Assembly: GCA_003990765.1 (NCBI GenBank)
Contig: RBNJ01000339.1
Coordinates: 1-32,675 of the forward strand
DNA from: Jimgerdemannia flammicorona
Taxonomy: Eukaryota
Direction: 5' to 3'
Length of the DNA stretch: 32,675 bases
The notes beneath the pieces were generated by a model. It ran no database searches. It was not told where the DNA came from and saw nothing but the letters and a program-made list of their open reading frames with translations. How positions within the stretch are numbered: the stretch's first letter is position 1; every line of letters starts with the position of its first letter. This document shows, piece after piece, positions 3,243 to 32,025 of the stretch. A program made the translations under genes and the position numbers.

Positions 3243-3298
<56 letters not shown>

Positions 3299-8430: not shown

Positions 8431-10779
8431 CTACTCCTCCAAATGCATCTCCTGGCTCGCAAGCATGGCCACCAGCGCCGCGCCCACGCCACTCCCATCT
8501 GGAGAAAAAAACAAAAGGTATCATGGAAGTCAGAAATACAGGCCAGCGAATTGAAACGTATGCGGCGAGAACATAATAAAGCTTATGATCAAAAATACCT
8601 TCAGCATGCACGAAAACTATTCGTTTTGCTTCTTCCTCGCCAAATATTTTGCACAACGTCTCTTGCATGCGCTCCTTGAAATACGGGTACTTGTTGACGA
8701 GTGTTCCTGAGCAATAGACGAGAGAAGATCAGATGCAATCTGTACGCTCTCGGTCCAATGTCACAATATACATGCATCATATCCCAACCTATTATGCCAG
8801 CTAAAACCATGGCCTCAACTCCACCGCGCACATACATACCGTCAACAGCCACATGGCAGGTCTTGTGTCCCTCGATCAAGTTCCGCTTCCGCACAATGGC
8901 GGCGACACCAAGGGCGGACAGCGTGGCGGCGCGCCGCCCGACGAGTTGGCACACGCGCTGTATCAGCTGGCGGTCGCGCAGGGTCGACGGCTGGGTGAAA
9001 GGAGTCATGAGGATGTGTTCGGTGTGGGTGAGGTTAGGAGTGGTATCGCTAGCGGGTTTACAAAGTTGAGGAGGAGAGATGGTAAGATTATCAGAAAATG
9101 ATTGTGTAGATACATGTGCCCCCAAATTTTTGACTGAAAATACATACACCACCGCCCACACCCCAAAGCACTCACCTCTCTACGGCGCTCATATTCGCCG
9201 TCAGCCAAGCCTCGTACTCGCGATCCCAAAACTCTCTACGTCTCCTCCGCTCGTCCTCGCCCTCTTCTACGTCCGCGAACAAGATACCCTGGTTCATCAG
9301 GTCGACGAGAGCCAAACGCGCGATCTCGCCGAGATACATGCCAGAGATCATTTTCTCAAAGGCCTGCGTGCGCGGGTGGACGGAATCGGCGTCGAGGGTG
9401 TGGTCGTACTTGGTGCGCGGGAGAACCTGTGAAAATGTGGGCGCGACGAAACGAACAGTTATACGGTCGTGGATGAGAATAGTGGGAGACAGTGTCCCCG
9501 TCAGGTTCACGATGGAAAAAATTAGAACCAATCGGTTCTCCTAAGTTGTCCCAGCCACTTGCTTCCTAATACACACAAAACTTACCACATCATCATTATC
9601 CAACGCTCCCCACTCGGTGTTTACCACCATCTTCGCCCTGTGTCCGTGCTTCTTTAGCTTTTCCTTGATGGTGTTGGCCTCTTCCTCTTTCAAACATTTG
9701 TGCATGGCGCCCAACTCCTCAACGTAGGCGGCGTTGGTACCCGTCCCAAAGATGAGACCCACGTTCGCGTCGGCATCGGTGTAGTTGGTCGCGACCAGGG
9801 CGCCTGTCGTGTCGTTAATGATTGCAACAACGGTTGCGTTGACATTCTGTGGATTAAGGGGGGAGAGGGAGAGGTCAATGAGAAAGAAATGGGAATGCGA
9901 GACAAATCGGAAAATTTGCATACCTTACGGTCAAGGGCATCCTGAAGAAGCTTAGCGATGTTTTGGCCGACGGCGTCGGGACAGTTGAAGCCCTTGGTCC
10001 AACGGAGGAGGGTGCCGTGGTTAACGTGAAGTTGTCTTTTGGAGATATGTGGACAAATGTCAGCATAGGGTATGGTACGTCATGCGATATAGTTTCATGA
10101 ACTTAAGAGCTCATTAATGGGTCCCATTATACACCGTATCTTCCAACATCCAATTCCGCACTCCCGCGACACATACTCAACCGGAAAACTGAACGTGAAC
10201 CCAATCTTCCACCCACCCTGCCCCTGCGGGTGTCCATCGCTACAATTCGAACTAATGAATGTGCTCACACATCCGGCGATGTAATCAAAAAGATCCATCG
10301 CGCGGGCGAGCTTGAGCTCTTCGGAGATCATGTACTTCTCTTGATGTATCTCAAATTTGTGATTTCCCAACAGGTCGACACGACAGACGCGCAAATTCGT
10401 GCCGCCCAGATCGATGGCGAGGTATGTGCCCTTCTCCTTGCCCGTGGGAAGGCGGTAGATGTAAGTGGGGATCATGGGAACCTGGTGAGTGCGAACGAAC
10501 AGAGAGAAGTTTGACGAGTATGCTGAATTTTAGGACGTGCACAAGATTCACAAAGGCAAGGCATAGGCTGAAAACAACAAACCAATTGATTGATATCGAT
10601 TGCTCCAGCCTGCGAACCAAGGGTTCTTTGATGCTTACAGAGTGGCCATGGGTTCCCAAGCCCTTGTCGAACTCGCGAATGAATTCTTCAAGTATTATGT
10701 TGAGGGATTCCGTTGGGATGTCAAAGTCTTTCTCAAGGCGAGTGACGGCTTCATCGTATTGTGGGTCGGTAACTGTCAT
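8431..10779 (-). CDS. HXK: Hexokinase (8 exons)
   Basis: Canonical motifs across GT-AG spliced exons: VPMIPTY, LAIDLGGTNLRV, GFTFSFPV, LLRWTKGF, INDTTG (catalytic Asp), LIFGTGTNAAY, NTEWG, FEKMISGMYLGEI, RRAATLSA, VAVDG, AEDGSGVGAALVA. Stop TAG at 8431-8433. Confidence 0.96.
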
Positions 10780-11619: not shown

Positions 11620-12440
11620 CTATGGGCCCATCTTCGCCATATCTTTTGTCACGACAACTTCCACCGAGTCCTCTGTGTATGACTCTATAGAGTTCTGTAG
11701 TCGCGGTCGGGATAGCCTCGGTAGCACAAACGAAAGGACGAAGATAGTGCAGTCCAAGACGAAGACGGAAATGTAACTGAAGGCCGCGAGGGTGTCGAAG
11801 GGGAGTTCATGGAAACCTGCGTGACGATTGAAACAGAAATACGGAAAGAGGACTAGACAGAACAAAGATTTCCAATCTGTCAAAAGGATGAATCCTCGAC
11901 TTACTCAAACTGACAATACTGAGCCGCGCCGGTCATATCCATCACCAAAAATATCCTGCTCACGCCTTGCACAGCTCTTGTCTGGTAAACGCGACAAAAA
12001 TTGTAAATGAAGTAGATTCCGGAATAAACCGGACCGAGAATTATATATACATTACTATGCAATAGAAACTTACGATATATATCAACGAATTGAGGAATAA
12101 ATCCAACAATCCACAAAACGACGGGAATGACACCCGTTGCGGTCATCGGCCAGGGTGACACCGAGTTCTGAATAAAATCCAAATTAACCCACCAGCCCCC
12201 ATCCCCGTGGACGCGATCACAAACACCACCACTCCAAACCATAGGTCTCTGGTCTTCTTCTCCTTTCCCACACCAGGTATACCCCAATCGCCTCCGTAAC
12301 ATACGCATTGTGCCCAACAAGCGTTTGAGAAAAATGTAAAAATATTGGGCTGCGCAATGGTCGGAATAGAGAGGTTGAGTACAATTGCATAGGTGGTGTA
12401 AAAAACAGAGCCGATCGACCAGATGAGCATCATGGCGGCC
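11620..12440 (-). pseudogene. Degenerate PQ-loop transporter paralog
   Basis: Homologous segments: AMMLIWSIG..YAIVLNLSIPTIAQPNIF; WIVGFIPQFVDIY; AVQGVSRIFLVMDMTGA; FDTLAAFSYISVFVLD. There is a frameshift near 12170. Exon 11905-11981 is 77 nt versus 81 nt for the equivalent exon of the intact paralog. No recognisable first PQ exon. Confidence 0.75.
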
Positions 12441-12669
12441 TGGAGGTGAGTTTGAGTCACGTTTATGCCGCGTGAGGAAATGTGACGGGTTGCAGAAATT
12501 GGGAACTTGCAGCTTGGGTCTGTTGTCGTCATTGCTTTTATGCGTGAAATGTCCGGTAATTGTCGCGAAGCTTCAAGTTAATTGCTGGCAGTGGTTGAGA
12601 TACGTCGCCACAGAGCGTATGTTTCGGTTGTCTTCCGTCGTTCCAAAGTGATACTAAACGGATAGTACT

Positions 12670-13978: not shown

Positions 13979-14020
<42 letters not shown>
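13979..14020 (+). repeat. Poly(A) tract, 42 nt
   Basis: Directly visible homopolymer. Confidence 0.95.
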
Positions 14021-14620: not shown

Positions 14621-17567
14621 CTAGCCCCTTCTCCCACCGCCTGCCTCCGTCCTCCTCGTCAACGCCTCCTGATCCTTTTGCAGATTGGCCAGATCGCGTT
14701 GCAGCTCCTCGAGCATCTTGGCGGGCGACCTTGCTGGCAGCGGGGGAGGGGTGGTGACGCCCATGGACTGCGGGCTCTGGGTGAAAGGAGGCGGGGAGTA
14801 GATCCTCTGCTGCTGGACGAAGGCCGCGGCCTGAGTGTGGTAGGCGAGTGGAGAGGAGGCGGCGGAGTTTGAAGAAGAGGAAGCGCGGGAGACAGAGGAG
14901 GCGCGGGAGAGGGAGGGGGGGGAGGAGGAAGAGGTAGAGAAGAGCTGCTGGCGTGGGGGGAGAGGCGGGGGACGGGTGGGAGATGGGGCGAGGAGGTCGA
15001 GGACGGCGGTGGTGTTTGGTGGGGGGATGGAGTCAAGGCTGCGGACGTGCTTGAGGCGGGCGGGTTTGGTGGTTTGGGGTGGGAGCGGAGGAGCAGGAGC
15101 GCCCTTTCGGTTGGGAAGGGAGTTGGTTTGTTTCGGTTTCGGTTTCGGTTTCGGGGTTGCAGATGGGGTTAGGGATAAGGAGGTCACGGACAAGGAGGCG
15201 GCAGTTTCGAGAGCGTTGAGGTCTGGAAAGCGTTCGTTGAAGGGGAGTTCGGGTTCCGGGGAGAGGACGGGTTGTGGGGTGGATGGGGCCTGGATGGGGG
15301 TTGGGACTGTGGTGGCAGGGGTTTGTTGGCGTGGAGGAAGAGGTGGTGGTGAAGAGATGATTGCTGGGGATGGTGGAGAGGCGAGCACGGTCTGAGCTCG
15401 GGCCTGAGCCTGAGCCCGAGCCTGGGCCTGGGCTTGAGCCTGAGCCTGGGCCTGAGTCTGAGCCAGTGTTTGAGCCTGAGCCAGTGTTTGAGCCTGGGCC
15501 AGTGTTTGAGCCTGAGCCAGTGTCTGTTGCCCCACCGCTTGCGTCGGCCCTGGCACCGCGATCCCTCCTCTCCCAAACTCGGCCAAATCGGCAAATAGCC
15601 CCGAGGATTCCTTCCTCCCTGGCGCCGCAGGCCTCTGCCTCGTGTCCCTCACTCCAGATGATGCACCGCCCTCGGACGTCTGTCTCAGGAATGTGAACGG
15701 ATTCTGGGCATCCGTGGGGGAGGGCGATACCTCGTCAGCGGATTTGCGTACCGTCATCATCATCCGCCGGAAGGCGTCCGGGTCGAGCGAGCTGCGCGCA
15801 GCGTGACCCGGTCGCGACGGTTTTTCTGGGGCGAGCGGGGTGGTTGGAGTGGTTGGCGTCGCGGATTTCGAGGCGAAAGGCGAGGACGGTGCCATCGTAA
15901 GTCGCCGGAAGGCGTTCGGGTCGAGTGAGCTGTGCGCAGCGTGACCCGGTCGCGATGGTTTTTTCGGGGCGAGCGAGGTGGTTGGCGTGGTTGGCGTCGC
16001 GGATTTCGGGGCGAAAGGCGAGGACGGTGTCGTCGGGGTGGTGGGTTTGGCGGGCGGCGAGGTGAAAATCGAGAAGGGGGAGGAAGTTGGGGATGGGGAG
16101 GTGGTGCGGGAGGAGGAAGAGGTAGAGTTAGCGGTGGCGGCGATGGTGGTTTGGATAGCAGGCGGTTTGGGTACGGGCCCTTTGGACATGCTTTCGGGTT
16201 CAGATGCGGGCGACTGAACCGGGAACAATGACAAAATGGACTGTTTCTGCTCCAACTGCTGGCGCTGTTGCTCCTGTTGCTGCCTCTGTTTGTGGGAGAA
16301 GAATTCCGACTCCGACCCTGCCGTCAAGGACGCCGCGGCGCCCACCGGCTTCTCGGGCTTCGTGTTGGCAGAGAGCCATTTAGAGGCGGATTCTGGCTCC
16401 GTCGCTGGTGTGGAAGGGGACACGGCGCTGTAGAACGGGTTACCAGGCGAGATGGGTGAGGGAGACGTGGCGGCGGGAGTCGAGGTAGGAAGCGGGGCGA
16501 GCTGCGCCGGGGGGAAGTAGCTCGTCGCGGCAGTCTCGAGCGGCTTGGGCGTGCGCGGCCGATTCAAGCTCGCGGGTATGGTCGCCGACGACTTCTGCGG
16601 CTCCGACACTAGCGACTCCCACCACTTATCCGACTCCCCCGTCGCGGGGTTATGTGTCTTCGCCGGCACCGGGGCTGACGCGAAATCGCCCAGCAGGTCG
16701 ACTTCCTTCTCAGGCTCGTTCGCGACGGGGGCGTTGAACATCCACGGATGAGCCGTCCGCGCGTTGGCAGTACGCGGTGGGGGATCGTCGCGAAAAGCGA
16801 AAGGAACGGGCGGCGTAATTACGTAGCCGGTGTGGTTGGGGCGGAGGGTGGGCGTTGCGGTGGTGGGAAAAGCGTATGGCGATTGAACGGGAACCGGAGA
16901 ACGAAATGTGGAGGATTCGAGATAAGCGTCGACGGGTTGGAGTCGGAAGCGGGGGACGGGAGCTGTGAGGGTGAGTTCCGAGTCGATTGTTAATATATGG
17001 GATGAATAAGAGAATGTGTAGCTGAGCGAGCGGGCACTTACCTTCAATGAAAACCAGGTTCGGTGATATCACGCGGCCGTTCTGCGCGTGAGCGACAAGC
17101 CTGAGGATGGCGTAGAACTGGCCTTCAGAGAGGCCGTCGTGGGCGCTGTCGAAGAAGGCAAATATCTGCGGTGGGAGGTATGATTGATCGATCAGCGCCA
17201 AATTAGTTTCCGTGACATCACCAGGGTATCCTTTCGCACTTTGGTAACCGATATTTCTGAGCATACCCACCTCAGCCAAAGTCTCCGAGGGCAGGTATGC
17301 ATTTGTGAGGAACCTCAGCACGGCGGCGTTGGAGACAGACGCGCCCATGGAGAAGGGGTCGAGCTCATTGAACCAGGAGTGGTAGGGGCCGCGCTCGCGG
17401 TCCGACAGGGAGGAGCGCGGGAGGTGGGGTGTGGCCGCCGGAACCTGATACTGGTACTGGTGCTGGTGCTGGTGCTGGTGCTGGTGCTGCTGTCGCTGTT
17501 CGGCGGCGGCGGGCTGGGCGTACCTGTTGGCGGCAAGTGGGAAAGGGTTGTCCAGGTCGAAGTACAT
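14621..17567 (-). CDS. EH-domain protein with a long Pro/Ser/Thr-rich disordered tail; endocytic scaffold-like (exons 17567-17271, 17165-17042, 16962-14621)
   Basis: N-terminal EH-like fold (YHSWFNELD...AVLRFL...LPSETLAEIFAFFD...LSEGQFYAILRLVAHAQNG). Three NPF motifs, DLL motifs, PPPLPPR SH3-ligand motifs and a C-terminal short coiled coil. GT-AG introns 17270-17166 and 17041-16963 keep frame. Confidence 0.85.
15392..15521 (-). repeat. Coding minisatellite (AQAQTL x4 then AQ repeats)
   Basis: 18-bp unit 'gagccagtgtttgagcct' and 6-bp 'tgagcc/tgggcc' units. Confidence 0.9.
15760..16030 (-). repeat. In-frame 138-bp (46 aa) tandem duplication inside the EH-protein gene
   Basis: 'cgccggaagg' at 15765 and 15903. 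PSSPFA.KSATPTTPTT.LAP.KPSRPGHAA.SSLDP.AFRR occurs twice. Confidence 0.9.
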
Positions 17568-18865: not shown

Positions 18866-21647
18866 ATGTATCGAATCACCCCGCAGCTCTACGACAAGAT
18901 TAAGCACTTTGCAAAATTCCCGCAGACAGGGGTGTCATTGCGCCAGATGGTTATGTTTGGTATGCCGCCTTTGTCCTGGGATTCTCTGGGTGCTTGCTGG
19001 TTGACTAGCGCGAGCCATTGAACAACTCAGTGACAAGGTGCCCGTCACAGTGACAAACACAACCCTAACTCCCATCTTCTTCCCTCTCCCTTCCCCCCTC
19101 CCCAACTACGCCTCGACACCCCCGACCATCCAGGCCAGAAGCCGACGCAGGGTACCCTCCTCAAGGCCAGTCAATTTCTCCACGGTACGTCCTACTCCCG
19201 ACATACCGGTTTTGGACATCAGCCGTCCCGATCTTTCATCTCCGATCTTTGATCCTGATCACGCACTTCCTAACCCACCATACTCACAGAGGAACTCCCG
19301 ATCCGGCTCGCACACCGCGTCAAGGAGCTTGAGGAGCTTCCGCACAACCTCAGCGACATGCCCTCTATCACCAAGGTGAAACAGTGGTACGCGCAGTCGT
19401 TCCAGGTACGCGAACCCTCCCTTCAATTCGACCCATGACACCGTCCGGGGCATTCCATTCCGGATGGCCCCTGCCCCGATCCAACCTTTTCCACCCTCGT
19501 CACATGACGCGCGCAGGAACTCGTCGACCTCCCGCCCCCGGAGCTCTCGCAGGCCGTCCGGCAGAACCTCAAGGCCATGGCTGTCAACATCGAGCCCATG
19601 CAGCTGCCACCCAACACTCCCAATTTGGCCATGGAGGACAACCTTTACGGCCGGGCGCCCGTCGCCGCAAACGGCGTTATGTCCGTACCTTTGGGGCATA
19701 GGTGGGTTAACCCTTCTTCGCTATGGATGCTTCTGTGACGGGGTTGTATTTTACTTGAACGCTGATGGTTATAGTTGGATTGTGGGTTAGGTACTACACC
19801 GGTGTGGGCGATTTTGACTACCCGCCTGAGGTCGTCAACTACAATGAGCGGTTCGTGAAGACGATTGAGATGATCAAGCGGAGACACGATCCTGTTGTAA
19901 CTACCGTGGTACGTGTTACGGGTATGGTGTAGAGAAGGCAACAAGCAACAAGCACAACCCCATTTCATTTTGGTTGTTTGGATAATCGCTTACCTTGGTA
20001 TCCCGCCGTCTCCTTCTACATCGGATTATGTCGTTGGTATCACCTCCCTATAGGGTAAGTATCACTTTTTTTTCTCTCATCCATACACCTATGTGTCAGG
20101 CTCTACGCGATCACTTGCGATCGTACAGCTTCAATCTTATGAATGAATTCACGAACCGATCCAATGAACAACAGCTCAGGGTATCCTCGAGTTCAAAACG
20201 CACCGTAAGTCGCCACACATTGACACGGACGTGCAGGCGTTCTTGGACCGGTTCTACATGTCGCGTATCGGGATTCGTATGCTGATTGGTGAGTGTGCTA
20301 GGTGTATTTCGGGCGCACATGGCCAGCGTGAGGGAGGGGGGATGGGAAATTCAGAGATCACGCCGCGTCCTCAGGGACTTACCGCAACCGATCCCACTCC
20401 CAGGCCAACACGTCGCCCTACACCGCGGCCCGCCGCGACCTGACTATTGCGGGGTGATCTGCATCAAGACGAACCTTTCGGAGATGGCGCAGGAGGCAAC
20501 GGACAACGCGCGGTTTATCTGCGAAGATTACTACGGGCTTTTCAAGGCGCCTGAGATTCAGCTCTTCTGCCGCCCGGACATCGAGTTCATGTACGTCCCC
20601 TCCCATCTCAGCCACATGCTGTTCGAGTTACTCAAGAACTCCTTGCGCGCCGTCGTAGAGACCTTTGGCACGGAGGCCGATAAGTACCCGCCCATCAAGC
20701 TTATCGTCACCGAGGGGAAAGAGGTCGGTTGTTGGGTGAAGGGGGGAGGGGATGCGGGGTGGTGTCGGGTGAGGTGGCCGGTTTGGAATGAATGAACTAA
20801 CTGTTGATTGCCTCGTTCTTTCAGGATATCACAATCAAGATCTCGGATGAGGGAGGCGGCATCCCGCGCTCCGGCATTCCTCTCGTGTGGACATACATGG
20901 TGCGTTCCGGAGACTCGGGCGAGAGACGTAGTTTTCCTAAGAGAGGGCGTGATATGGTTTATCGGGTTTATCGTAGTTTCATTTCTTTTTCTTTCTTTTT
21001 TTTTTACTTGTTTTATGTTTAACCTACACCCATATACATTATGCCATATTAATATACTCACTACGACTTTGTTTCCTGGCGAGGTTCTTGGAATATATAC
21101 ATGAGATATTAATCGTTTCATCTTTCCGTTTGCTCGCTCGAACAGTACACCACCGCGGAGGCGCAGTTGCTCGACCCAGACTACAACAAGTCGGATTTCA
21201 AGGCGCCGATGGCCGGATTCGGGTACGGGCTACCGATCTCGAGGCTGGTACGTGTGTGGGGATGGGCGCGGTTGTACTGTCAGTGAGAAAAGCGAGGATG
21301 GGGTCGCGAGAGTGTTTTGTTTGTCTTGTGTGGGTTGGTGTTCGTGTGCGTGGCTGACACGGGCGTGACCGGTCGTTTCGCATCACAGTATGCACGGTAT
21401 TTCGGTGGCGATTTGAAACTGATATCCATGGAGGGGTAGGTATCTCTTTATGTTTTGTCACGTTCGATTCATACACCTCTTGTGGCTTTGGGGTCCGTAT
21501 TACCACGATTGTTAGTGAATTGCGACTCTCATGTTCTGATTGAATAACGTCCCGTCGATCAACGCGATCCAACATCGTCGTAGCTACGGCACGGACGTAT
21601 ACCTGCATCTCAACCGTCTATCCAACAGCGACGAGCCGTTGTGGTAA
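18866..21647 (+). CDS. PDK: Mitochondrial pyruvate dehydrogenase kinase (PDK/BCKDK family, GHKL ATPase); 11 ordinary exons plus a predicted 1-nt exon at 20054
   Basis: Motifs [127 protein letters not shown]. Stop TAA at 21645-21647. Confidence 0.96.
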
Positions 21648-22044
21648 TCCCTCCCCCTACCCTCCCACCCCATCCCACCCCACCCGAGTGAGCGTGGGAT
21701 CGGGCGTGGATAGACATTTGCTTCGATTCGGATCTTCTTTAATTATGTTGTTGTAAGTGGGAGGATATCTATCTGGACTTGGGAAAAGTGTATTTTAACT
21801 ATGAACCTCCTTTGGAAAGGGATTGTTCCTTTTAGGAGCGTAAAGCCCCACACATATGTACAGATTTTTGACATTCATGATGTATTGGACGATGCTAACT
21901 AGTGTAGCCATGCTTGACACATAAACAGGTTGAAAGGTCAAGGGCGGACCTCTTCACGATTTCATTTTATTATAATCTGAGATGCTATATGGGGCATGTT
22001 GCAACAAAACCAGACAAAGTGAACATTTAACATTGATGTTGGAA

Positions 22045-22652
22045 TTACTTCCTTATTTTCAATCAAGGTTATTTTTTAATCTCAATTTGAGCAGTTAGTT
22101 AACCATTCTGTTGTAATTGGGCTTTTAACTCATTGATTTCAATAATTAGCTTTTGCGGGGTGAGTTTTTTTAATCTTTCCACTTTGGCTTCTAATTCCTT
22201 TATTCTATTCAACAACTCTTGTTTTTGTCTTTTGCTCCACTCCTCCAATGTTTCTTGAAACTTGGTTATTTCTTCTCTTTCAACTTCTAGTGTCTCCTTA
22301 GTAGCAGATAGTTCTTTTTCCAACTCTTTGGTTTTGTTTTCTAGGTGAGAACTATAAGAATTAGCAGCTAACTTTTCTTTTGAAATTGGCTTATTTGATT
22401 TATCTTTCTCTAAATAACAAAAGCACCTATTTTGGTTTCTTTTTATTCTTCTGCACTCTTCACATCAAGATAAATTGTTGTTTTCAAAATCTTTTTTATA
22501 ATCCTCACAAATAAAAACTATGTCAAAAAACCCACCAGTTTCTTTATTATGTACTATCATTTTATAGATTATAAGAGTGATCTTGAAATTAAAAGTTGGG
22601 TTTTAAAATCTAGCAAACAGAAGTTATATTTTTGTAATTCTCTCTTAGCTAT
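22045..22652 (-). pseudogene. Intron-less Cys-cluster plus coiled-coil gene relic, MRE (Mycoplasma-related endobacterium)-like
   Basis: Reconstructed (M)AKRELQK.NFC...ICED...CEEC...CFC...ELEKELSATKETLEVEREEITKFQETLEEWSKRQKQELLNRIKELEAKVERLKKLTPQKLIIEINELKAQLQQNG*LTAQIEIKK*P*LKIRK*. Contains frameshifts and transition-derived stops. The family call rests on my recall of MRE protein style, not on a search. Confidence 0.55.
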
Positions 22653-23601
22653 TGGAATTATATTGTAATCTAATTTTATAAGCCTATTTGCTCTTTTGTA
22701 AGATATAAGTATTGAGCCTTTTCTTTTACTTTCTTTGCTGCATGTTTGATTTTTGAAAGCCTACTTACTTTTTCTTCTCTTAATTCCTTTATTTTTTTCT
22801 CTTTAACAAATACAGTATATTCTAAACTACACACTCTTCTTAAAAGTTCATTGGCTTGCTTGTCAAACTGGTCAACTATTTTATTGAATTGTCTTTTCTT
22901 TCATTCATGGGATTTTTCTAAATATTTGTCAAATTCTTTCTACTCAATTTTTATACTTTCTTTTAGTTTTTCTACTTTTGTCTCTAACTCTTGCTACTTT
23001 GTTTTTAGTTCTTTAATTCATTGAACTTTATTTTCAATAATATTTTTAAGGATGATGTCTTTAGCAGGTTTGCCTCAAAGTTAACCTCCTGATTTTATTT
23101 GCAGCATAATTTTAGCCTTATCTTTATATAGTTTTTAGTCTTTTATCACTACTTCTCTATAATACTCAGTTGATCTCCAATAATCTACAATAATTTTCTT
23201 GATAATTTTTTCTAGTCTTTTCTTATTTTCTTTCTTCATCTATATATTGTAATTTGTAAGTACATATCTGTAATATATTATTTATAAATAGTAGTTATAA
23301 ATTGAACTCTTAATGATTTACTAATCAGTTCTCTTAAATATTTCTCTATGTTTTTGACAACATTGAAATAAGAAGTTCTTTTAACTGTCTCTGCTATTAT
23401 TTGATTAACTTATTCACTGACTTCTTGCTTGAATTCAGCTTTCTCTTGTTTAGTGATTAGTATTGACTTTTTTAATTCTTGATTTTTCTTTTTGATTTCA
23501 TCATTTTCTTGTTGTTTATCTAACAATTGCTTTTTCAGTAATTTGATTTCATTTAGTAATTCTTTGTTTACATGTTGTTATACTTCTAAAATATTTACCA
23601 T
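22650..23601 (-). pseudogene. Intron-less Lys/Glu-rich coiled-coil gene relic, MRE-like
   Basis: One frame from ATG 23601 (MVNILEV*QHVNKELLNEIKLLKKQLLDKQQENDEIKKKNQELKK...KEFDKYLEKSHE*KKRQF...KIKHAAKKVKEKAQYLYLTKEQ) runs ~315 codons, interrupted only by stops one transition away from CAA/CAG/CGA/TGG. It shares an E-W-x-K-R-Q-like segment with the downstream gene. Confidence 0.55.
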
Positions 23602-25380
23602 AATTTTTTCTCTTATATCCTTTTTATAAAGATATATAAAATTATTTTAGCAATATTTATAAAAAACTTATTAAAATTAATAAAGATAATTAATTTTCTT
23701 TTAAATGTTTTATTCATTGTCATTATGTTGGTCTTGGACAAGTAATATCTTTAAATTGATCTCTAACAAATGAGCAAATATTGTAATAGAGGTACTCTTG
23801 GTATTTCAATTTCATAGGAAGAGGCTTAAGCACTAGAAATAATAAGACTTTGATTTTTTCTATAGCTTGAGGAGTTGTGGATTTACTAGTCTTTAATAAA
23901 TTAAATTTCTAAAAAAGACCATTTGTGACTTCTTGGACTTTGATAATACCTAGATTTGCTTTAGTAAAAAGAAAATGTTAAACCTTTTGCAGACTAAGTA
24001 ATTTTCTAAAATAAGTTTCTAGGCTACTGAGAATGTCATAATATTAAAACCCTTCATCATCATTATAATATTGAGCTTTATTTAATCTGGCAATGCTGGA
24101 CCTTTTTATTACATCAATGACATTATTTATAAAGTCTACTATAGTCTTGTGATAAAGTCTTTTGATCAGTCTGAAGCTTCTATCATATTTGAATTTAGTA
24201 TAGCCTAGAACTATAAAGTTCAATTTAATACTTTCATAATAACTGGCAATCACCAGATATAGGTAAAACCAAAGAATAGTATTATTTTTATTTTGTCCAT
24301 CTGTATTATTGCATATAACTTTCAGATACTTCTCACTTTTATTCAATTGCTTAATTCTATTAAAGGCCAGACTAAGCATATCATTCAGATCCTTTTTGAT
24401 GAGCTCATTCTTATCCAGTATGTAATTAATTTGCTTATACACTACTTCATCTTAGATACCAAATAAATATACTTTGCAAGTACTAAGATAATATACTTTG
24501 CCAATCTATTGATCTGAATAAGGCACATAGATATTTTGAGCTCAGTCATAACTGTAATAGACCACTGTATCAATATTATAGTATTGTATCTCACTATTTA
24601 GTATAGAATTATTCTGGTCAATGAGTTTCCTCTATTCTTCAGCCAACTTGGTATTTTTGTTATAATAATGTCATTCCAACTTGACTTTGGTCAGATGCTT
24701 TTTATATCTTTTTAATAAATTCTAGATCTCTTCTTCTTTATAAACTTTGAATTATAAGTCATTCTGCAAATATTGACAGATATCACATAAATTAGTTTGA
24801 GGACTTATGACTTAAATATATAGAGTTAGTTAATACCACAATTTACAAAAGGCATAATATTTAGAGGTATATAATTTACTATCTTCTTTTAGATCAGCTA
24901 AAAAGTTCTGGTAAATGAATTTATAGTTCATTTCTATAGATAAAAAGATAATTGACTGAGTGACTTAATTAATATTTCTGACTAAGCTAAATAAGCTATG
25001 AACTTTGGTATAGTTTAGCAAAAAATTCTTAACAGTAATAGTAATATCAATATTGATGACCATCTTGATTTTTCACTATAGTATTCTCTTATATTACTAT
25101 AGACTTGTAACAGAAGACCATTCTTGAGCAAGTAATTTCAGATATTTTCAAAATGATTATGGCCAATACTAAGCATATTGAGATAAGTTTTTTGATAAAG
25201 AGATATATTATAATTTCAGTAGTAGATAGTTCTCTTATTGATATAAGTCTTGTTCTTGAGATATTAACTAGTATTGATCACTCCTCCATCTATGGCTTTG
25301 AGTTGGGCTATTAAAAATATATTTTGTTCTGACTTGGAAAGTACTTGAAAGGCTTCTTATAATTTGGTAAACTCTTCTTT

Positions 25381-25783
25381 TGTAACATTTTAGCATAGTT
25401 TATTCCTTTTCTTTGTCTTTCTTCAATATTCTACAACCTTCTGATACTTTCTGAATGCTTAGAAATCCTTTCTTGGTGCCGAGCATTAACTAGTACTTAT
25501 TTAGTTAGTCACTGAATGTCCTGGAAACTTGTAGAACTTTATTTGTCACTATTTGTCATCTTTGCTGAGAACTTTCCTCTTGGTATTTTCCTTTGATTTC
25601 TCAGATCCTTCTGGATCCTCCTTTCAGATCTTGTATAAATATCCCCTTTGTTCTTATGAATAAAGTCTCAGAATATTTTCTCCCAGAAATCCTTTGAGAA
25701 CACTTGAATCCTTAGTATCTCTTCGAGCTACTTAGGACTACCAGAATTAGTCACTTCCTCATTTAGAAACTAGAACCATTACA
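25381..25783 (+). repeat. 5' LTR (403 bp)
   Basis: tgtaacatttt...gaaccattaca, with tataaat and aataaa signals. About 21 substitutions versus the 3' LTR by manual alignment. Confidence 0.97.
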
Positions 25784-25785
25784 CT

Positions 25786-25796
25786 TGATAGCAGTG
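25786..25796 (+). promoter_or_regulatory. Degenerate primer-binding site (TGATAGCAGTG, two transitions from TGGTAGCAGCG)
   Basis: Lies 2 nt after the 5' LTR. Resembles the TGGTAGC-type complement of an initiator-Met tRNA 3' end. Confidence 0.5.
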
Positions 25797-25851
25797 GTGA
25801 AGTTATACCTAGCCTTATCAAGACACCTCTCAAGATATCAGTCACAACACT

Positions 25852-28800
25852 ATAGAGGACAATGGGTGGAACCCTTCATACAGTACCTACGATCCAAGCA
25901 ATGCCTCTTACCACCAGCAAGAAGAAGAAGAGGAACAGCCAATCTCCACCCAGTCAACTGGGTCCATCGAGAGTCTTTTGCAAACTGCATTAGCTCAGAT
26001 CGCCTAACTTTAAGAACGCATAGAAAGAAAGGAAAGCAAGGCCTCCACTCATACCTCCATACCTCCACCGACATCAATACATCCGACAGTAGTCACTATC
26101 AAGCCTCAGAAGCCTGACACCTTTAATGGTCAAAGAGGAGGACTGTCTACCAATGCCTGGCTTTTCCAATTGGAGCAATATGGAGAACTGACCAATTTGG
26201 AAGAAACAACACTAGTCCAATTTGCCGCCACACTCCTCCAAGAGAATGCTGCAATCTGGTGGCAAAATCATGTCCAGAATACCAGATTCTCTGGCCGAAT
26301 CAAGACCTGGGGCGAATTCTCTGATGCTATTCAAGGCCAATTCAAACTGGTCAACAGCACCAAGGCTGCGCGAGACCATCTGGCAAACGTCAAACAACTC
26401 AAGTCTGTACAAGCATATAATGCACAATTCCTGTCAATTCTGCTAGAATTACCACATGTCACTGAATATGAGAAGGTTGACAAGTACATCTGAGGTTTGA
26501 AAGGCCAAACCCGAGTTCATGTTGAACTAGAAGAACCCAAGGACCTAGACACAGCAATGAAAATTGCTGATAGGTTTGATGTCATCACCTATGGTCACCA
26601 CTTCGAATAGAAGAGACCGCCTTTCAACAACAACAACCACAGAAGGGAGGAACCCAAAGTCAGAACTATTGGACCTGCCCCCATGGACCTAGACACTATT
26701 GACAAGAGCAAGAAAGGAAAACTTACACCTGAGGAAAAGGAGCACCTCAAGAAGGCTGGAGCCTGCTTCTTTTGCCGCTAGCCTGGTCACATTGCAACCA
26801 AATGTCCCAAGAAAACTGCAGAACCAAAGAGGATCCTGGTCCTGTCCAAAGATACTCAAGGTCAACCAGTCAAATAAGAAGTTGTACTCAATTTTATACG
26901 AGTCAACCCCAAGGCCCAGATCCCTCAAGTACAGTCAGAAGGAGCCATTGGTTTGGACCTTCAAGCAGTACAACAAGTCACTATTCCAGTACATGAAAGA
27001 AGGCTCATTCCAACTGGCCTTTCAGTCGAAATCCCCAAGGAACATTATGCAAGAATTGCACCAAGATCTGGCCTCAGCTTCAAGCACTCATTAGATGTTG
27101 GTGCTGGAGTCATAGACCCTGACTTCTGAGATGAAATGCAAGTTCTGCTAGTCAACCACAAGAACCAGCCATATACTGTCAATGAAAGAGATAGAATTGC
27201 ACAGCTCATTCTGGAGTAAGCCACCCTACCAGTTGTCAAAGAAGTTACCAAGCTATCTTCCACTAAGCGAGATCAGAAAGGCTTTGGCAGCACTGACAAA
27301 GTTGCAAGCATAGCTGAGAACCAAGCCAATTCAATACTCATTTTCAAAGGTCTAGTTAAGGGACAAGAACTAGATGTTCTCATAGACAGTGGAGCTATTG
27401 GGAACTTCATCAACAAGAACCTCATCGATAAGCTCAAGATTTTCACCAAACCAGCTAGTAAGAATGGTGGAGTTATCACTGCAGATGGCACCACCTTACC
27501 AATTGACTCAATTGCCACTAAACTTTCCCTCAAGATCCAGAAGTACTGGGAACATTTAGATTTTGAGGTAGTACTACTAGGAGACCATGACCTGATCCTA
27601 GGCAAACTCTGGCTTATGCGGCACAACTCCTAGATTAATTGGACCAAGAATGAAGTCACCTTGATTCAAGATGGAGCCAATATTACCATCAAGCCAGACA
27701 AGACTCAGACAAGAACCCCAATTGCTACCCTTTCAGCAATCCAGTTCAAGAAGGCCCTCAAGAAAGCTACCTGTGCCTTTGTGGTACTGATCTGACCAAA
27801 GAAAGAAAACAAGAAGCTATCAATTGATGAAAGCGTCAAGTTACTGCTGAACAAGTACAAGGATGTCTTTCCAGACAAACTACCTGGTCTACCACCTTCA
27901 AGAGACCATGACCACGAAATCAAGTTGGTACCTGATGCAGCTATACCTAAGAAGAAAATGTACCGCATGTCTCAACTTGAAATTGAAGCAGTCAAGAAGG
28001 AACTCAATAAACTCATTGAATGAGGAGCCATTCAGCCAAGCAAGTCACCCTTTGGCTCCCCAGTCCTATTTGTCAAGAAAAAGGATGATACTCTGCAAAT
28101 GTGCATAGACTACCGAGCACTCAACAAGATCACTGTCAAGAACCACTATCTGCTACCACTCATAGATTAAATCTTTGATATGCTCAAGAATGCAAAGTAC
28201 TTCACCAAGATTGATCTCATCTCTGGGTATTACCAAATTCGAATCAAGCCAGAAGATATACCCAAGACTGCCTTCATGACACTCTTTGGACTCTATGAGT
28301 TTCTAGTCATGGCCTTTGGTCTCACCAATATGCCAGCAATCTTTCAAGACCTCATGCAAACTGTCTTCAAGGATCAGCTCTATATCTTTGTACTTGTGTA
28401 CATTGATGATATCCTGATCTTCAGTAGCACCAAAGAAGAACACCTCAAGCATATTGAACAAGTCCTCAAGATCCTCTGTGAGAACAAGCTCTATGCAAAG
28501 CTCAAGAAATGTGAATTTTTTAAGGATCAAGTCGAATACCTTGGACACATTGTATCAGCCAAAGGAATTCAAGTAGACCCAAGGAAAATACAAGCCATTG
28601 AACAGTGGCCTGTACCCGCAAACCTCACTGAACTTAGGTCCTTCCTTGGTCTGGCTGGATACTACCATCGATTTGTCAAGAACTTCTCTGGCATTGTAGA
28701 ATCTTTGACAAACCTCCTGCGAAAGGAACCCAACTCTGACCTCTTTATTCCCTACATCTGGGATGCCTTCTGTCAACAAGCCTTTCAAGAACTCAAGAAC

Positions 28801-30684
28801 CGCCTGACCCATGCACCTGTCCTTAGAAACATGGACCCAAACTTAAAGTTCACAGTCACTACAGATGCATCTAACTTTGCCATTGGTGTAGTCATTTCTC
28901 AAGATGATGGTCAAGGACACCGACCTATTGCCTTTGAGTCAAAAAAATTGTCCCCAGCAGAACAAAAGCTGGCTACTCACGAAAAGGAACTCCTGGCAAT
29001 CATACATGCCCTCAAGACCTGGTGATACTATCTAGAAGGAGTTGAGTTCAATGTGATCACTGATCACAGATCCCTTCAGTATATCAACACTCAACCAACC
29101 CTTTCTTACCAACAAGCCAAGTAGAGTCAACTGCTTCAGATCTTTACCCCAAATATCATCTACAAGCCTGGCAAAACTCTAGTTATACCAGATGTACTTT
29201 CAAGGAGACCTGACCTTGCCACAATTTTACAAGTCACCATGGCACCTGAATTCCTCAACCAGATCAAGAAGGCATACAAACAAGACTCTCTGGTTCTACA
29301 AAGGAACACTAAGGAATTCAAGGAAAAGTATACCATCAAGGACAACCTCGTGTACTATCAAGACAAAGTATGCCAACCCTGAACTATGATACAAGATTCT
29401 CCATGAACACCATGACTCTCCACTAGCTGGCCACCTTGGAACTGAGAAGACCATCAAGAATATCCAACGAGACTACTACTGGCCAAACATGCTCAAGGAA
29501 ATCAAGGAGTATGTCCAAAGCTACAATCTTTGCCAAAGAAACAAGTCAAGCAACCAAGCACCTGCCAGTCTTCTACAACTCTTGTCAATTCCAACCAAGA
29601 AGTTCGAACAAGTCACAATGGACTTCATTGTATAACTTCCATGAACCAAAACAGGCTATGATGCTATTGTTGTGTTTGTGGACCGTCTCACCAAGATTAT
29701 AATTGCCGAGCCAACCACAACCAATGCCACTGCCCCAGAAATTGCAAGAATCTTCTTCAAGACTGTCTTCCACCATTATGGACTTCCCTGAGTAATTATC
29801 AGTGACCGCAACCCCAAGTTCACAAGTCACTTCTGGCAAGCACTCTTCAAGACCCTTGGAACCCAAATTGCTATGTCTACAGCTTTCCATCCTCAAACTG
29901 ATGGACAGACAGAGCAAATGAACAGAACACTTGAACAAATGCTCAGAAACTACGTGTCCTATGAGCAAGATGATTGGGACCACTATCTGACTTACGCCAA
30001 GTTCACCTACAATAATACCAACCAATCATCAACTGGCCTTTCCCCATTTCAGCTACTTTATAGTCAAAACCCGAGACCCCTGCAAGTCTAGTCCAATTCC
30101 AGCAATCCAGTCACACACAAGTCTCCACAGCCCAGAACCTTATCGACAAAATGGATTCCCTTCTCAAGATTGCCACTACAAACCTGCAAAAGGCTCAGCA
30201 ACATCAAGCTAAGTATACAGATAAGAAGTGGCGAGATGTCACATACAACATTGGCGATATGATTCTACTCAAAGCTGACAACATCAAGGCTCAATCTCAA
30301 GTCAACCGCCAGTCAGCCAAATTCCAGCCCAAGTACCTTGGACCCTTCGAGATTACCGAGCAAGTCTCTATATGGTCTTATCGTCTCAACTTGCCAACAA
30401 CCATATGTATACACCCAGTATTCCATGTGTCACAACTCAAGGCCTGGAACCAGTTACCCCCATATCTTGGCCAAATTCCGATGCCATCAGCACCAGTCAT
30501 AGTTAAAGACCACATCGAGTATGAAGTTGAGAAAATTTTAGACAAACGAGTCTGATACTGTTGCACAGAATACCTAGTCAAGTGGATGGGCTACCCTGAA
30601 TATGACGCCACCTGGGAACCTGCCGCCAACCTCAAGAACTCCCAAGATCTCATCCAAGAGTTTGAGCAAAAAGGAACTCATTGA
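25852..30684 (+). pseudogene. gag-dut-pol polyprotein with premature stops and two frameshifts (near 29373 and 30090)
   Basis: Frame +1: KPDTFNG...AWL (Gag), GPAPMDLD, CFFCR*PGHIATKC (26764-26805), LIDSGA (27379-27396), YIDD (28399-28410), TDAS and EKELLAI (RNase H). Frame +2: HDSPLAGH, VTMDF, ISDRNPKF, HPQTDGQTE. Back in frame +1: YLGPF and YEVEKIL...YLVKW.GY...TWEP (chromodomain), stop 30682-30684. Confidence 0.95.
26881..27297 (+). pseudogene. dut: Trimeric dUTPase domain embedded in the retrotransposon polyprotein
   Basis: All five motifs in order: AIGLDLQA, IAPRSGLS, AGVIDPDF*DE, DRIAQLI, RDQKGFGSTD. In frame with Gag and protease; stops at 27127 (TGA) and 27217 (TAA) are single C>T changes. 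Confidence 0.93.
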
Positions 30685-30997: not shown

Positions 30998-31400
30998 TGT
31001 AATATTTTAGCATAGTTTATTCCTTTTCTTTGTCTTTCTTTAATATTCTACAACCTTCTGGTACTTTCCGAATGCTTAGAAATCCTTTCTTGGCGCTGAG
31101 CATTAATTAGTACTTATTTAGTTAGTCACTGAATATCCTGGAAACTTATAGAACTTTATTTGTCACCATTTGTCATCTTTGCTGAGAACTTTCCTCTTGG
31201 TATTTTCCTTTGATTTCTCAGATCCTTCTGGATCCTCCTTTCAGATCTTGTATAAATATCCCCTTTGTTCTTATGAATAAAGCCTCAGAATATTTTCTCT
31301 CAGAAATTCTTCGAGAACACTTGAATTCTTAGTATCTCTTTGAGCTACTTAGGACCACTAGAATTAGTTGCTTCCTTATTTAGAAACTAGAACCATTACA
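30998..31400 (+). repeat. 3' LTR (403 bp)
   Basis: tgtaatatttt...gaaccattaca followed by the TSD tcttt. Confidence 0.97.
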
Positions 31401-32025
31401 TCTTTAGGTACTTTGGAAGAATAACTATAACTATAATCTACTTTCAAGAACTTAATTGCTTTTTTATATTCAGTCATCATAACTATATAATATATTTTAT
31501 GCATAGTTTGTCTGGTTTTGTAAAATTTCTTCTGTGCAGTATCTTAAAAAATACATAGAACTATTTCTATATACTTTACTCTTTATATTTTTATTTTTTT
31601 CTTAATTCTTCAAATGTTTTTGGTAATTTTTGCTTCTTAGAATTTAACTCTCCTTGACTTCATCTAGAAATCTCTTCTTGGAAAGTGATATTTATATTTC
31701 TATTAAAATTGACATATAATTGCTGGTAAATTTCATAAATAATTTTCTCTTTATCTAAATATTCTTGAATAGCTTTGGTATCAGATATTTTGAAAACATA
31801 TGGGGCAATTTTCTCACCTTGTTCTTGTTTCAAAATGCTCCTGATGGTACTATAGTTTTTCGGTTCCATAGTGGATTTAATATAAACTAATTTCATATTT
31901 ATATATTTACATAGGGATAATCTTACATATGTCCCATAACGTAAACTCATTGAGAAAGTCAAAAATTATTTTTTCTAAGCCTCCGCCCACGTGACTGTTC
32001 GTGTCACCACTTTAATCACGTCAAC

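Follow-up and report, generated by a model that had tools for sequence, protein, structure and literature searches.

A probable one-nucleotide exon, supported by spliced RNA, in a pyruvate dehydrogenase kinase gene of Jimgerdemannia flammicorona

Introduction

Exons of a single nucleotide have been published and are very rare, and our literature searches on single-nucleotide exons returned few cases. As described in the cited passages, APC11 of Arabidopsis contains a constitutive single-nucleotide exon that was proven with reporters (Guo and Liu 2015, PMC4674806), the one-nucleotide exon of Fusarium CYP621A is described as the first fungal case and the second of any kind (Nelson and Syed 2026, PMC12940212), and a long-read annotation of Coprinopsis cinerea lists thirteen 1-nucleotide (nt) exons (PMC12230235). 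Here we describe a G at position 20054 of a pyruvate dehydrogenase kinase (PDK) gene that very probably forms a constitutive one-nucleotide exon between two U2-type GT-AG introns. The gene lies on contig RBNJ01000339.1 (assembly GCA_003990765.1) of Jimgerdemannia flammicorona, an Endogonales species according to a taxonomy look-up, and the whole contig of 32,675 nt is referred to below as the window.

The PDK locus resembles APC11 in that a constitutive one-base exon lies between spliceosomal introns and was at first mis-annotated; it differs in that APC11, as far as the passage describes it, comes from a plant, has an A (A333) as its exon and was established with reporter constructs (PMC4674806), whereas the PDK case comes from sequence and RNA contigs. 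With Coprinopsis it shares one-base exons, which recur in that fungal genome under long reads, although the Coprinopsis passage gives a catalogue count without gene-level or comparative analysis (PMC12230235). The searches found no published one-base exon in PDK, in Endogonales or in Glomeromycotina.

Results

A single G between a canonical acceptor and a canonical donor

The host gene is the following:

18866..21647, + strand: pyruvate dehydrogenase kinase gene, PDK/BCKDK family; coding sequence of 12 exons including the putative one-base exon, 428 amino acids

Joined by coordinate, the exons give 1287 nt in one open frame encoding 428 amino acids; leaving out G20054 brings a stop near codon 224. 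Judged by sequence the gene belongs to the PDK/BCKDK family of mitochondrial protein kinases, with kinase activity predicted. A deposited protein (P0001, source name Jimgerdemannia flammicorona BCKD kinase) has 100% identity to the window in exon 8 and matches the Pfam families PF10436 (BCDHK_Adom3, 7e-44) and PF02518 (HATPase_c, 1.6e-9). A complete orthologue, P0006, matches the human PDK3 structure 1y8n with an E-value of 3.8e-81, and human PDK3 aligns across the V-A-Q-G motif discussed below without a gap.

The features at the junction are listed here, with slashes marking splice boundaries and with X1, X2 and X3 denoting RNA runs described in the next section:

19791..19908, + strand: exon 5, phase-0 end; RNA contig pieces stop at 19908 in X1, X2 and X3
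19909..20053, + strand: intron A, 145 nt, GTACGT...ctccctaTAG, canonical ends; no RNA contig over it
20054..20054, + strand: putative one-base exon G, which opens the Ala codon GCT of V-A-Q-G
20055..20174, + strand: intron B, 120 nt, GTAAGT...aacaacAG
20175..20288, + strand: exon 7, CT CAG GGT..., encodes (A)QGILEFK...RIGIRMLI(G); RNA pieces start at 20174/5; PF10436, E 8e-9
19922..19927, + strand: rejected donor GTATGG, used by P0001, adds VRVT
20175..20179, + strand: rejected acceptor CAG/GG at 20179, would remove AQ; used by no RNA contig

Inspection of the + strand shows that exon 5 ends in phase 0 with ACC GTG at 19908 and is followed by the donor GTACGT from 19909, and that the acceptor aacaacAG, ending at 20174, is followed from 20175 by CT CAG GGT, one base short of a codon. 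Inside this 266-nt gap (19909-20174, or 145 + 1 + 120 nt) the acceptor ctccctaTAG ends at 20053 and the donor GTAAGT begins at 20055, which places G20054 directly between a canonical AG and a canonical GT (TATAG/G/GTAAGT at 20049-20060). A sequence-only reading of the window had proposed the one-base exon, and all the coordinates and motifs that it gave for the site (19909, 20054, 20175; introns of 145 and 120 nt) proved exact. Its further argument that these intron sizes are typical of the gene is true and weak: the gene also contains a 246-nt intron, so intron size does not discriminate, and we dropped the argument.

The internal site is strong, combining a pyrimidine run, TAG, the G and GTAAGT, and is the sole AG-N-GT site in 19909-20174. 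The pattern YAGGGTRAGT occurs once on the two strands of the 32.7-kb window, at 20054, where shuffles expect 0.21 occurrences and 21 of 100 window shuffles contain at least one; scaled by arithmetic from these window shuffles to 266 nt of one strand, the chance is about 9e-4. In 200,000 shuffles of 19909-20174 itself, AGGGTRNGT had a P of 0.0036 and YAGGGTAAGT one of 0.00036.

Other kinds of element were also considered. Comparison of introns A and B with each other, and of each with the rest of the window, found no similarity and hence no sign of a tandem duplication or an introner-like element. The first eight letters of intron 10 (from 21248), GTACGTGT, are also those of intron A, and the two introns show no further similarity. 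Folding of 19895-20190 as RNA gives a predicted stability no greater than that of shuffled sequences (z 0.46), so that structured RNA does not explain the site, and an Rfam scan of 19600-20500 gave a single weak sub-threshold match outside the introns. The U12-type consensus consists of the donor RTATCCTT and a branch site, TCCTTAAC, close to the acceptor; the donors of intron A (GTACGTGT) and intron B (GTAAGTAT) are not U12-like. Nor is the arrangement a stwintron, as one G stays in the mRNA, and no stwintron nesting ([D1,2]- or acceptor-type) with canonical ends fits, since 19910 begins TA and 20172-73 is CA.

Spliced RNA contains exactly one G at the junction

Four (X1, X2, X3 and X5) of five listed runs were compared with 19250-20750, each positive run coming from its own study. 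Three of the four (X1, X2 and X3) contain the joint 19908>20174, which skips 265 nt and has one letter that fits either side. In X1 the joint lies in a 1679-nt contig whose two flanking pieces have no differing letters, in X2 in a 618-nt contig from a variant about 97% alike, and in X3, a root metatranscriptome, in a 151-nt contig whose shorter side is 39 nt. X5 had no contig over the junction; the one contig it has nearby, with 86 foreign letters, comes from another gene or organism. Parts of the gene lacking RNA coverage were given no weight. The mRNA therefore reads GTG + G + CTCAGGGT, in which a single G separates GTG from CTCAG; it encodes V-A-Q-G, the product foreseen in the sequence-only reading with G20054 included. 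A single mRNA base thus stands between two exons that no one canonical intron can join in frame to give the conserved protein. X1 and X2 also contain three other joints in the gene, all GT..AG (19406-19516, 19702-19790 and 20289-20403).

Two canonical single introns would keep the frame across the gap. One, from the donor at 19909 to the acceptor at 20179, deletes AQ; it had been recognised from the sequence and named as an outcome that would speak against the one-base exon. The other, overlooked at that stage, pairs the donor at 19922 (ACG G/GTATGG) with the acceptor at 20174 and inserts VRVT. Both have GT..AG ends, and the second was deposited as P0001, which reads TTVVRVTAQG at the junction. 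Neither joint, however, is present in the contigs of X1, X2 and X3, 157 of 199 homologues have the two-residue spacing, and the P0001 model is wrong elsewhere too, skipping exon 2 even though this exon is present in RNA contigs. The RNA contigs, which drop rare variants, refute donor 19922 and acceptor 20179 as the main form, and it is extremely improbable that either provides the main mRNA.

The RNA bears differently on a single non-canonical intron of 265 nt, either GT..CA (19909-20173) or TA..AG (19910-20174), in which case the internal AG/G/GTAAGT would be coincidental. Indeed, the joint was scored as GT..CA in the RNA comparison, with 265 nt skipped and one ambiguous letter. All nine gene introns outside the gap are nevertheless GT..AG, three of them RNA-confirmed, and the donor GTACGTGT does not point to the U12 class. 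In addition, the internal site has a chance probability of 0.0004-0.004 and recurs amid unlike intron sequence in L025, a contig from another fungus described below. To our knowledge, GT-CA and TA-AG introns are essentially unused, and we consider a single intron of this kind very unlikely.

The same layout in a diverged fungal orthologue

Metagenome contigs were scanned for DNA encoding the peptide at the end of exon 5, which gave 71 loci and 73 matches, some contigs being listed twice. The 70 matches with at least 20 nt downstream were scored as follows:

48/70 matches: straight run from the V-position residue (V, I or M) into A-Q-G (mRNA or no intron)
21/70 matches: ordinary phase-1 intron, NNN G/GT...AG/CN CAR GG
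1/70 matches: phase-0 donor like that of the window (L025)

The acceptor could be located in 20 of the 21 phase-1 cases, L043 being too short. L025 is an AT-rich contig (29% GC) that matches the Funneliformis model P0067 best, at 79%. Its minus strand has the sequence ...ACC ACA GTG/GTATGT, 70 nt, TTTTAG/G/GTAAGG, in which the intron resembles intron A of the window in nothing but the splice signals. The AG-G-GT layout, whose presence in orthologues had been suggested as a check, is hence kept in one diverged genomic relative. L053, a Glomeromycotina-like transcript from a related fungus that is spliced for the most part, shares 87% identity with L025 in exon 5 and reads GTG GCT CAA GGA.

L053 (minus strand) further contains 11 extra letters ending TTTTTAG at the next exon junction, about 40 nt past a 16-residue coding stretch; they shift the frame, as if an alternative acceptor further upstream had been used or the molecule had been only partly processed. 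A scan of genome contigs with the exon-5 end peptide pattern gave no matches. A looser pattern, HDPVVTT, hit at least 120 bacterial or archaeal loci, none PDK-like by blastx, and these were set aside as chance matches.

The prevalence of the phase-1 arrangement raises the alternative that the window contains an assembly error, the true sequence being GTG G/GTACGT...ACAG/CT with an ordinary phase-1 intron and one G of a GGG run having been lost. Precisely this form, NNN G/GT...AG/CN, is found in 21 of the 70 fungal matches, and the only possible DNA run, X4, has a word share of 0.06. Against an assembly error, L025 is an independent assembly of another organism and has the same phase-0 donor and AG/G/GTAAG. 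Five other protein models, presented in the next section, delete exactly AQ, which is not expected from a phase-1 donor, and the perfect internal site would have to be a coincidence. Taken together, we assign a lost G only a slight probability.

Protein models of related fungi fail at the junction

We compared 199 PDK homologue proteins. Two residues separate the V position from G-x-x-E-x-K in 157 of them, and the motif region is absent in 27. Exactly AQ is deleted in five of the 199, namely P0020 (Geosiphon), P0035 and P0043 (both Ambispora), P0067 (Funneliformis) and P0009 (Bifiguratus); these are Glomeromycotina with the exception of Bifiguratus, which NCBI places in Endogonales incertae sedis. 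A phase-0 donor forces a gene predictor on to the next in-frame AG and so leads to the AQ deletion, whereas with a phase-1 donor no such deletion would arise.

The pattern is broader among 16 models whose sources name genera that we take to be Glomeromycotina, a placement checked by taxonomy for two. One of the 16 models (P0042) reads V-AQ-G, and the other 15 are incorrect, truncated or absent at the junction:

4 models, AQ deleted: P0020, P0035, P0043, P0067
2 models, exon run into the GTA... donor: P0119 (VVWSQG), P0122 (VVTQG)
2 models, later acceptor or region dropped: P0121, P0070
2 models, reading VGK or MGK: P0111, P0124
1 model, 16-residue insertion: P0028
4 models, region absent or truncated: P0013, P0074, P0099, P0112

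The Endogone model P0002 also breaks at the junction, reading TTVA/YRK with QGILEFK skipped, and the transcript-derived proteins P0046, P0061 and P0069 contain both residues. These gene-model errors suggest, at the level of predicted proteins, that the arrangement may be common to Endogonales and many Glomeromycotina, and the one-base exon would explain a systematic annotation error in mycorrhizal fungi. That gene predictors would miss such an exon had been anticipated, and P0001 together with these 15 models bears this out.

P0001 departs from the gene at further places. It skips exon 2 (19134-19184, GQKPTQGTLLKASQFLH), the 3' end of which is present in RNA contigs as loose ends before 19289, includes 22 residues of intron (from 20900) and is without the last exon (21584-21647).

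Weighing the one-base exon

Several observations weigh against the one-base exon or limit its reach. The mature mRNA is equally expected from one GT..CA or TA..AG intron, and the RNA runs are assembled contigs in which intermediates, lariats and rare isoforms are not visible. The donor is known from the assembly and not from DNA reads, and a one-G deletion would mimic the locus. CTRAY is the usual branch-point consensus, and the branch-point candidates in introns A and B match it only loosely. L025 ends 21 nt past the G, before the downstream acceptor and exon. The evidence for a spread through Glomeromycotina comes mostly from gene-model errors and not from DNA, and the VGK and MGK models (Acaulospora and Paraglomus) fit either architecture.

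As the mature mRNA fits several readings, the choice rests on the low chance probability of AG/G/GTAAGT, its recurrence in L025 and the AQ-deleting gene models. On these grounds we are highly confident that G20054 is a constitutive one-nucleotide exon between two U2-type GT-AG introns.

A putative splicing path and the origin of the exon

In order to form the observed mRNA from a one-base exon, introns A (145 nt) and B (120 nt) would be removed in two separate splicing reactions, with the G joined between GTG and CTCAG to complete the Ala codon of V-A-Q-G. The acceptor of intron A and the donor of intron B overlap, which would preclude their simultaneous recognition and make removal sequential. 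A single base does not offer the length that exon definition needs, so the two introns would be recognised by intron definition, one after the other. Removal of A first would recreate the donor GTG G/GTAAGT, as found in the fungi with an ordinary intron, and removal of B first would leave the acceptor TATAG/GCTCAG, so that either order would give a normal substrate.

The metagenome loci offer a comparison from which the history of the two introns may be read. L012, L061 and L067 have an ordinary intron (GTC/GTT G/GTAAGT or GTAGGT...AG/CN, the first slash separating alternative codons) of roughly 130-230 nt and are 73-85% identical to models that we take to be Mortierellomycotina. Loci with Met or Ile before Ala likewise have an ordinary phase-1 intron. 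Intron B shares with this ordinary intron both the donor context G/GTAAGT and the acceptor AG/CT CAG GG, and we therefore read B as ancestral and A as gained. Intron A, the proposed younger one, would have been gained one base upstream of B, between the Val codon and the G, thereby stranding the G. Another conceivable origin is that the exonic G was lost and a cryptic AGGGT within the intron then compensated for the loss, as proposed, in the passage cited, for Fusarium CYP621A (PMC12940212).

A gene tree of 41 rows, chosen from the 199 proteins together with the window product and built with a quick method, supported Mucoromycotina at 96, Glomeromycotina at 99, Mortierellomycotina at 100 and the pair of the window and Endogone at 100. 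Recovery of these subphyla indicates that the PDK gene was vertically inherited; the order of the groups is unresolved in this tree, which does not separate a single origin from two. We see an even chance that the one-base exon arose once, before the split of Endogonales (Mucoromycota) and Glomeromycotina, and was kept in both of these plant-symbiotic groups, with Mortierellomycotina having the ordinary intron only.

Other features of the window

The remaining features of the window are listed here:

3245-3296: pure A run of 52 bases, in an AT-rich block (GC 0.28)
8604-9179, - strand: exon-sized frame, Hexokinase_2 (E 9e-15); neighbouring gene, opposite strand to PDK
11904-12572, - strand: exon-sized frame, weak PQ-loop match (E 1e-5); neighbouring gene, opposite strand to PDK
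13979-14020: pure A run of 42 bases
14621-17068, - strand: stop-free frame of 815 codons, GC-rich (0.63) and strongly GC-skewed; no match in Pfam; 6/18/36-nt tandem repeats (15402-15526) and a 138-nt repeat (15765-16029)
22001-26000 and 31001-32000: AT-rich blocks, GC 0.24-0.34
28171-29022, + strand: retrotransposon fragment, an open frame in which Pfam identifies reverse transcriptase and RNase H domains (PF00078, PF17919, PF17917)

Discussion

One-base exons as such were already published; the PDK exon is a new, RNA-supported member of this very rare class and is probably ancient. Its junction was recovered in three runs from three studies, it lies inside a motif that is gap-free against human PDK3, and comparison points to its derivation from an ordinary phase-1 intron. 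There is also a practical side, as the deposited J. flammicorona protein and most arbuscular mycorrhizal models are wrong at the junction, an error that pipelines and alignments inherit. Should the single ancient origin hold true, this would be the most deeply conserved single-nucleotide exon known and a clean natural case of two introns at positions one base apart; if shared by descent, it would show that a one-base exon can stay stable over very long times.

Two related systems also remove one apparent intron in steps. Recursive splice sites (AG/GTAAGT) are zero-length exons of long animal introns and leave nothing in the mRNA. The PDK site is like them in having an adjoining acceptor and donor inside the intervening region and in its putative stepwise removal, and unlike them in that the mRNA retains one base and the introns measure 145 and 120 nt instead of being very long. 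Stwintrons, the spliceosomal twin introns of fungi, as described in the passage cited (e.g., PMC5587772), share with the PDK site two consecutive reactions in one apparent intron, at positions one base apart; in a stwintron, however, a splice signal of the outer intron is split by the inner one, without an exonic base remaining, whereas the two PDK introns would be independent and the G is kept.

The closest likeness in detail is to Fusarium CYP621A, where, according to the passage cited, the same AG/G/GT core is found, the G completes a codon in a conserved motif, the flanking phases could not otherwise be joined, the exon is conserved in orthologues and supported by RNA reads, and predictors miss it (PMC12940212). 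CYP621A, in contrast, is a P450 gene of Ascomycota with conservation shown within one genus in that passage, whereas the PDK exon is found in Endogonales and in a Glomeromycotina-like contig, and its downstream intron can be identified, by its shared splice signals, as the putative ancestral phase-1 intron.

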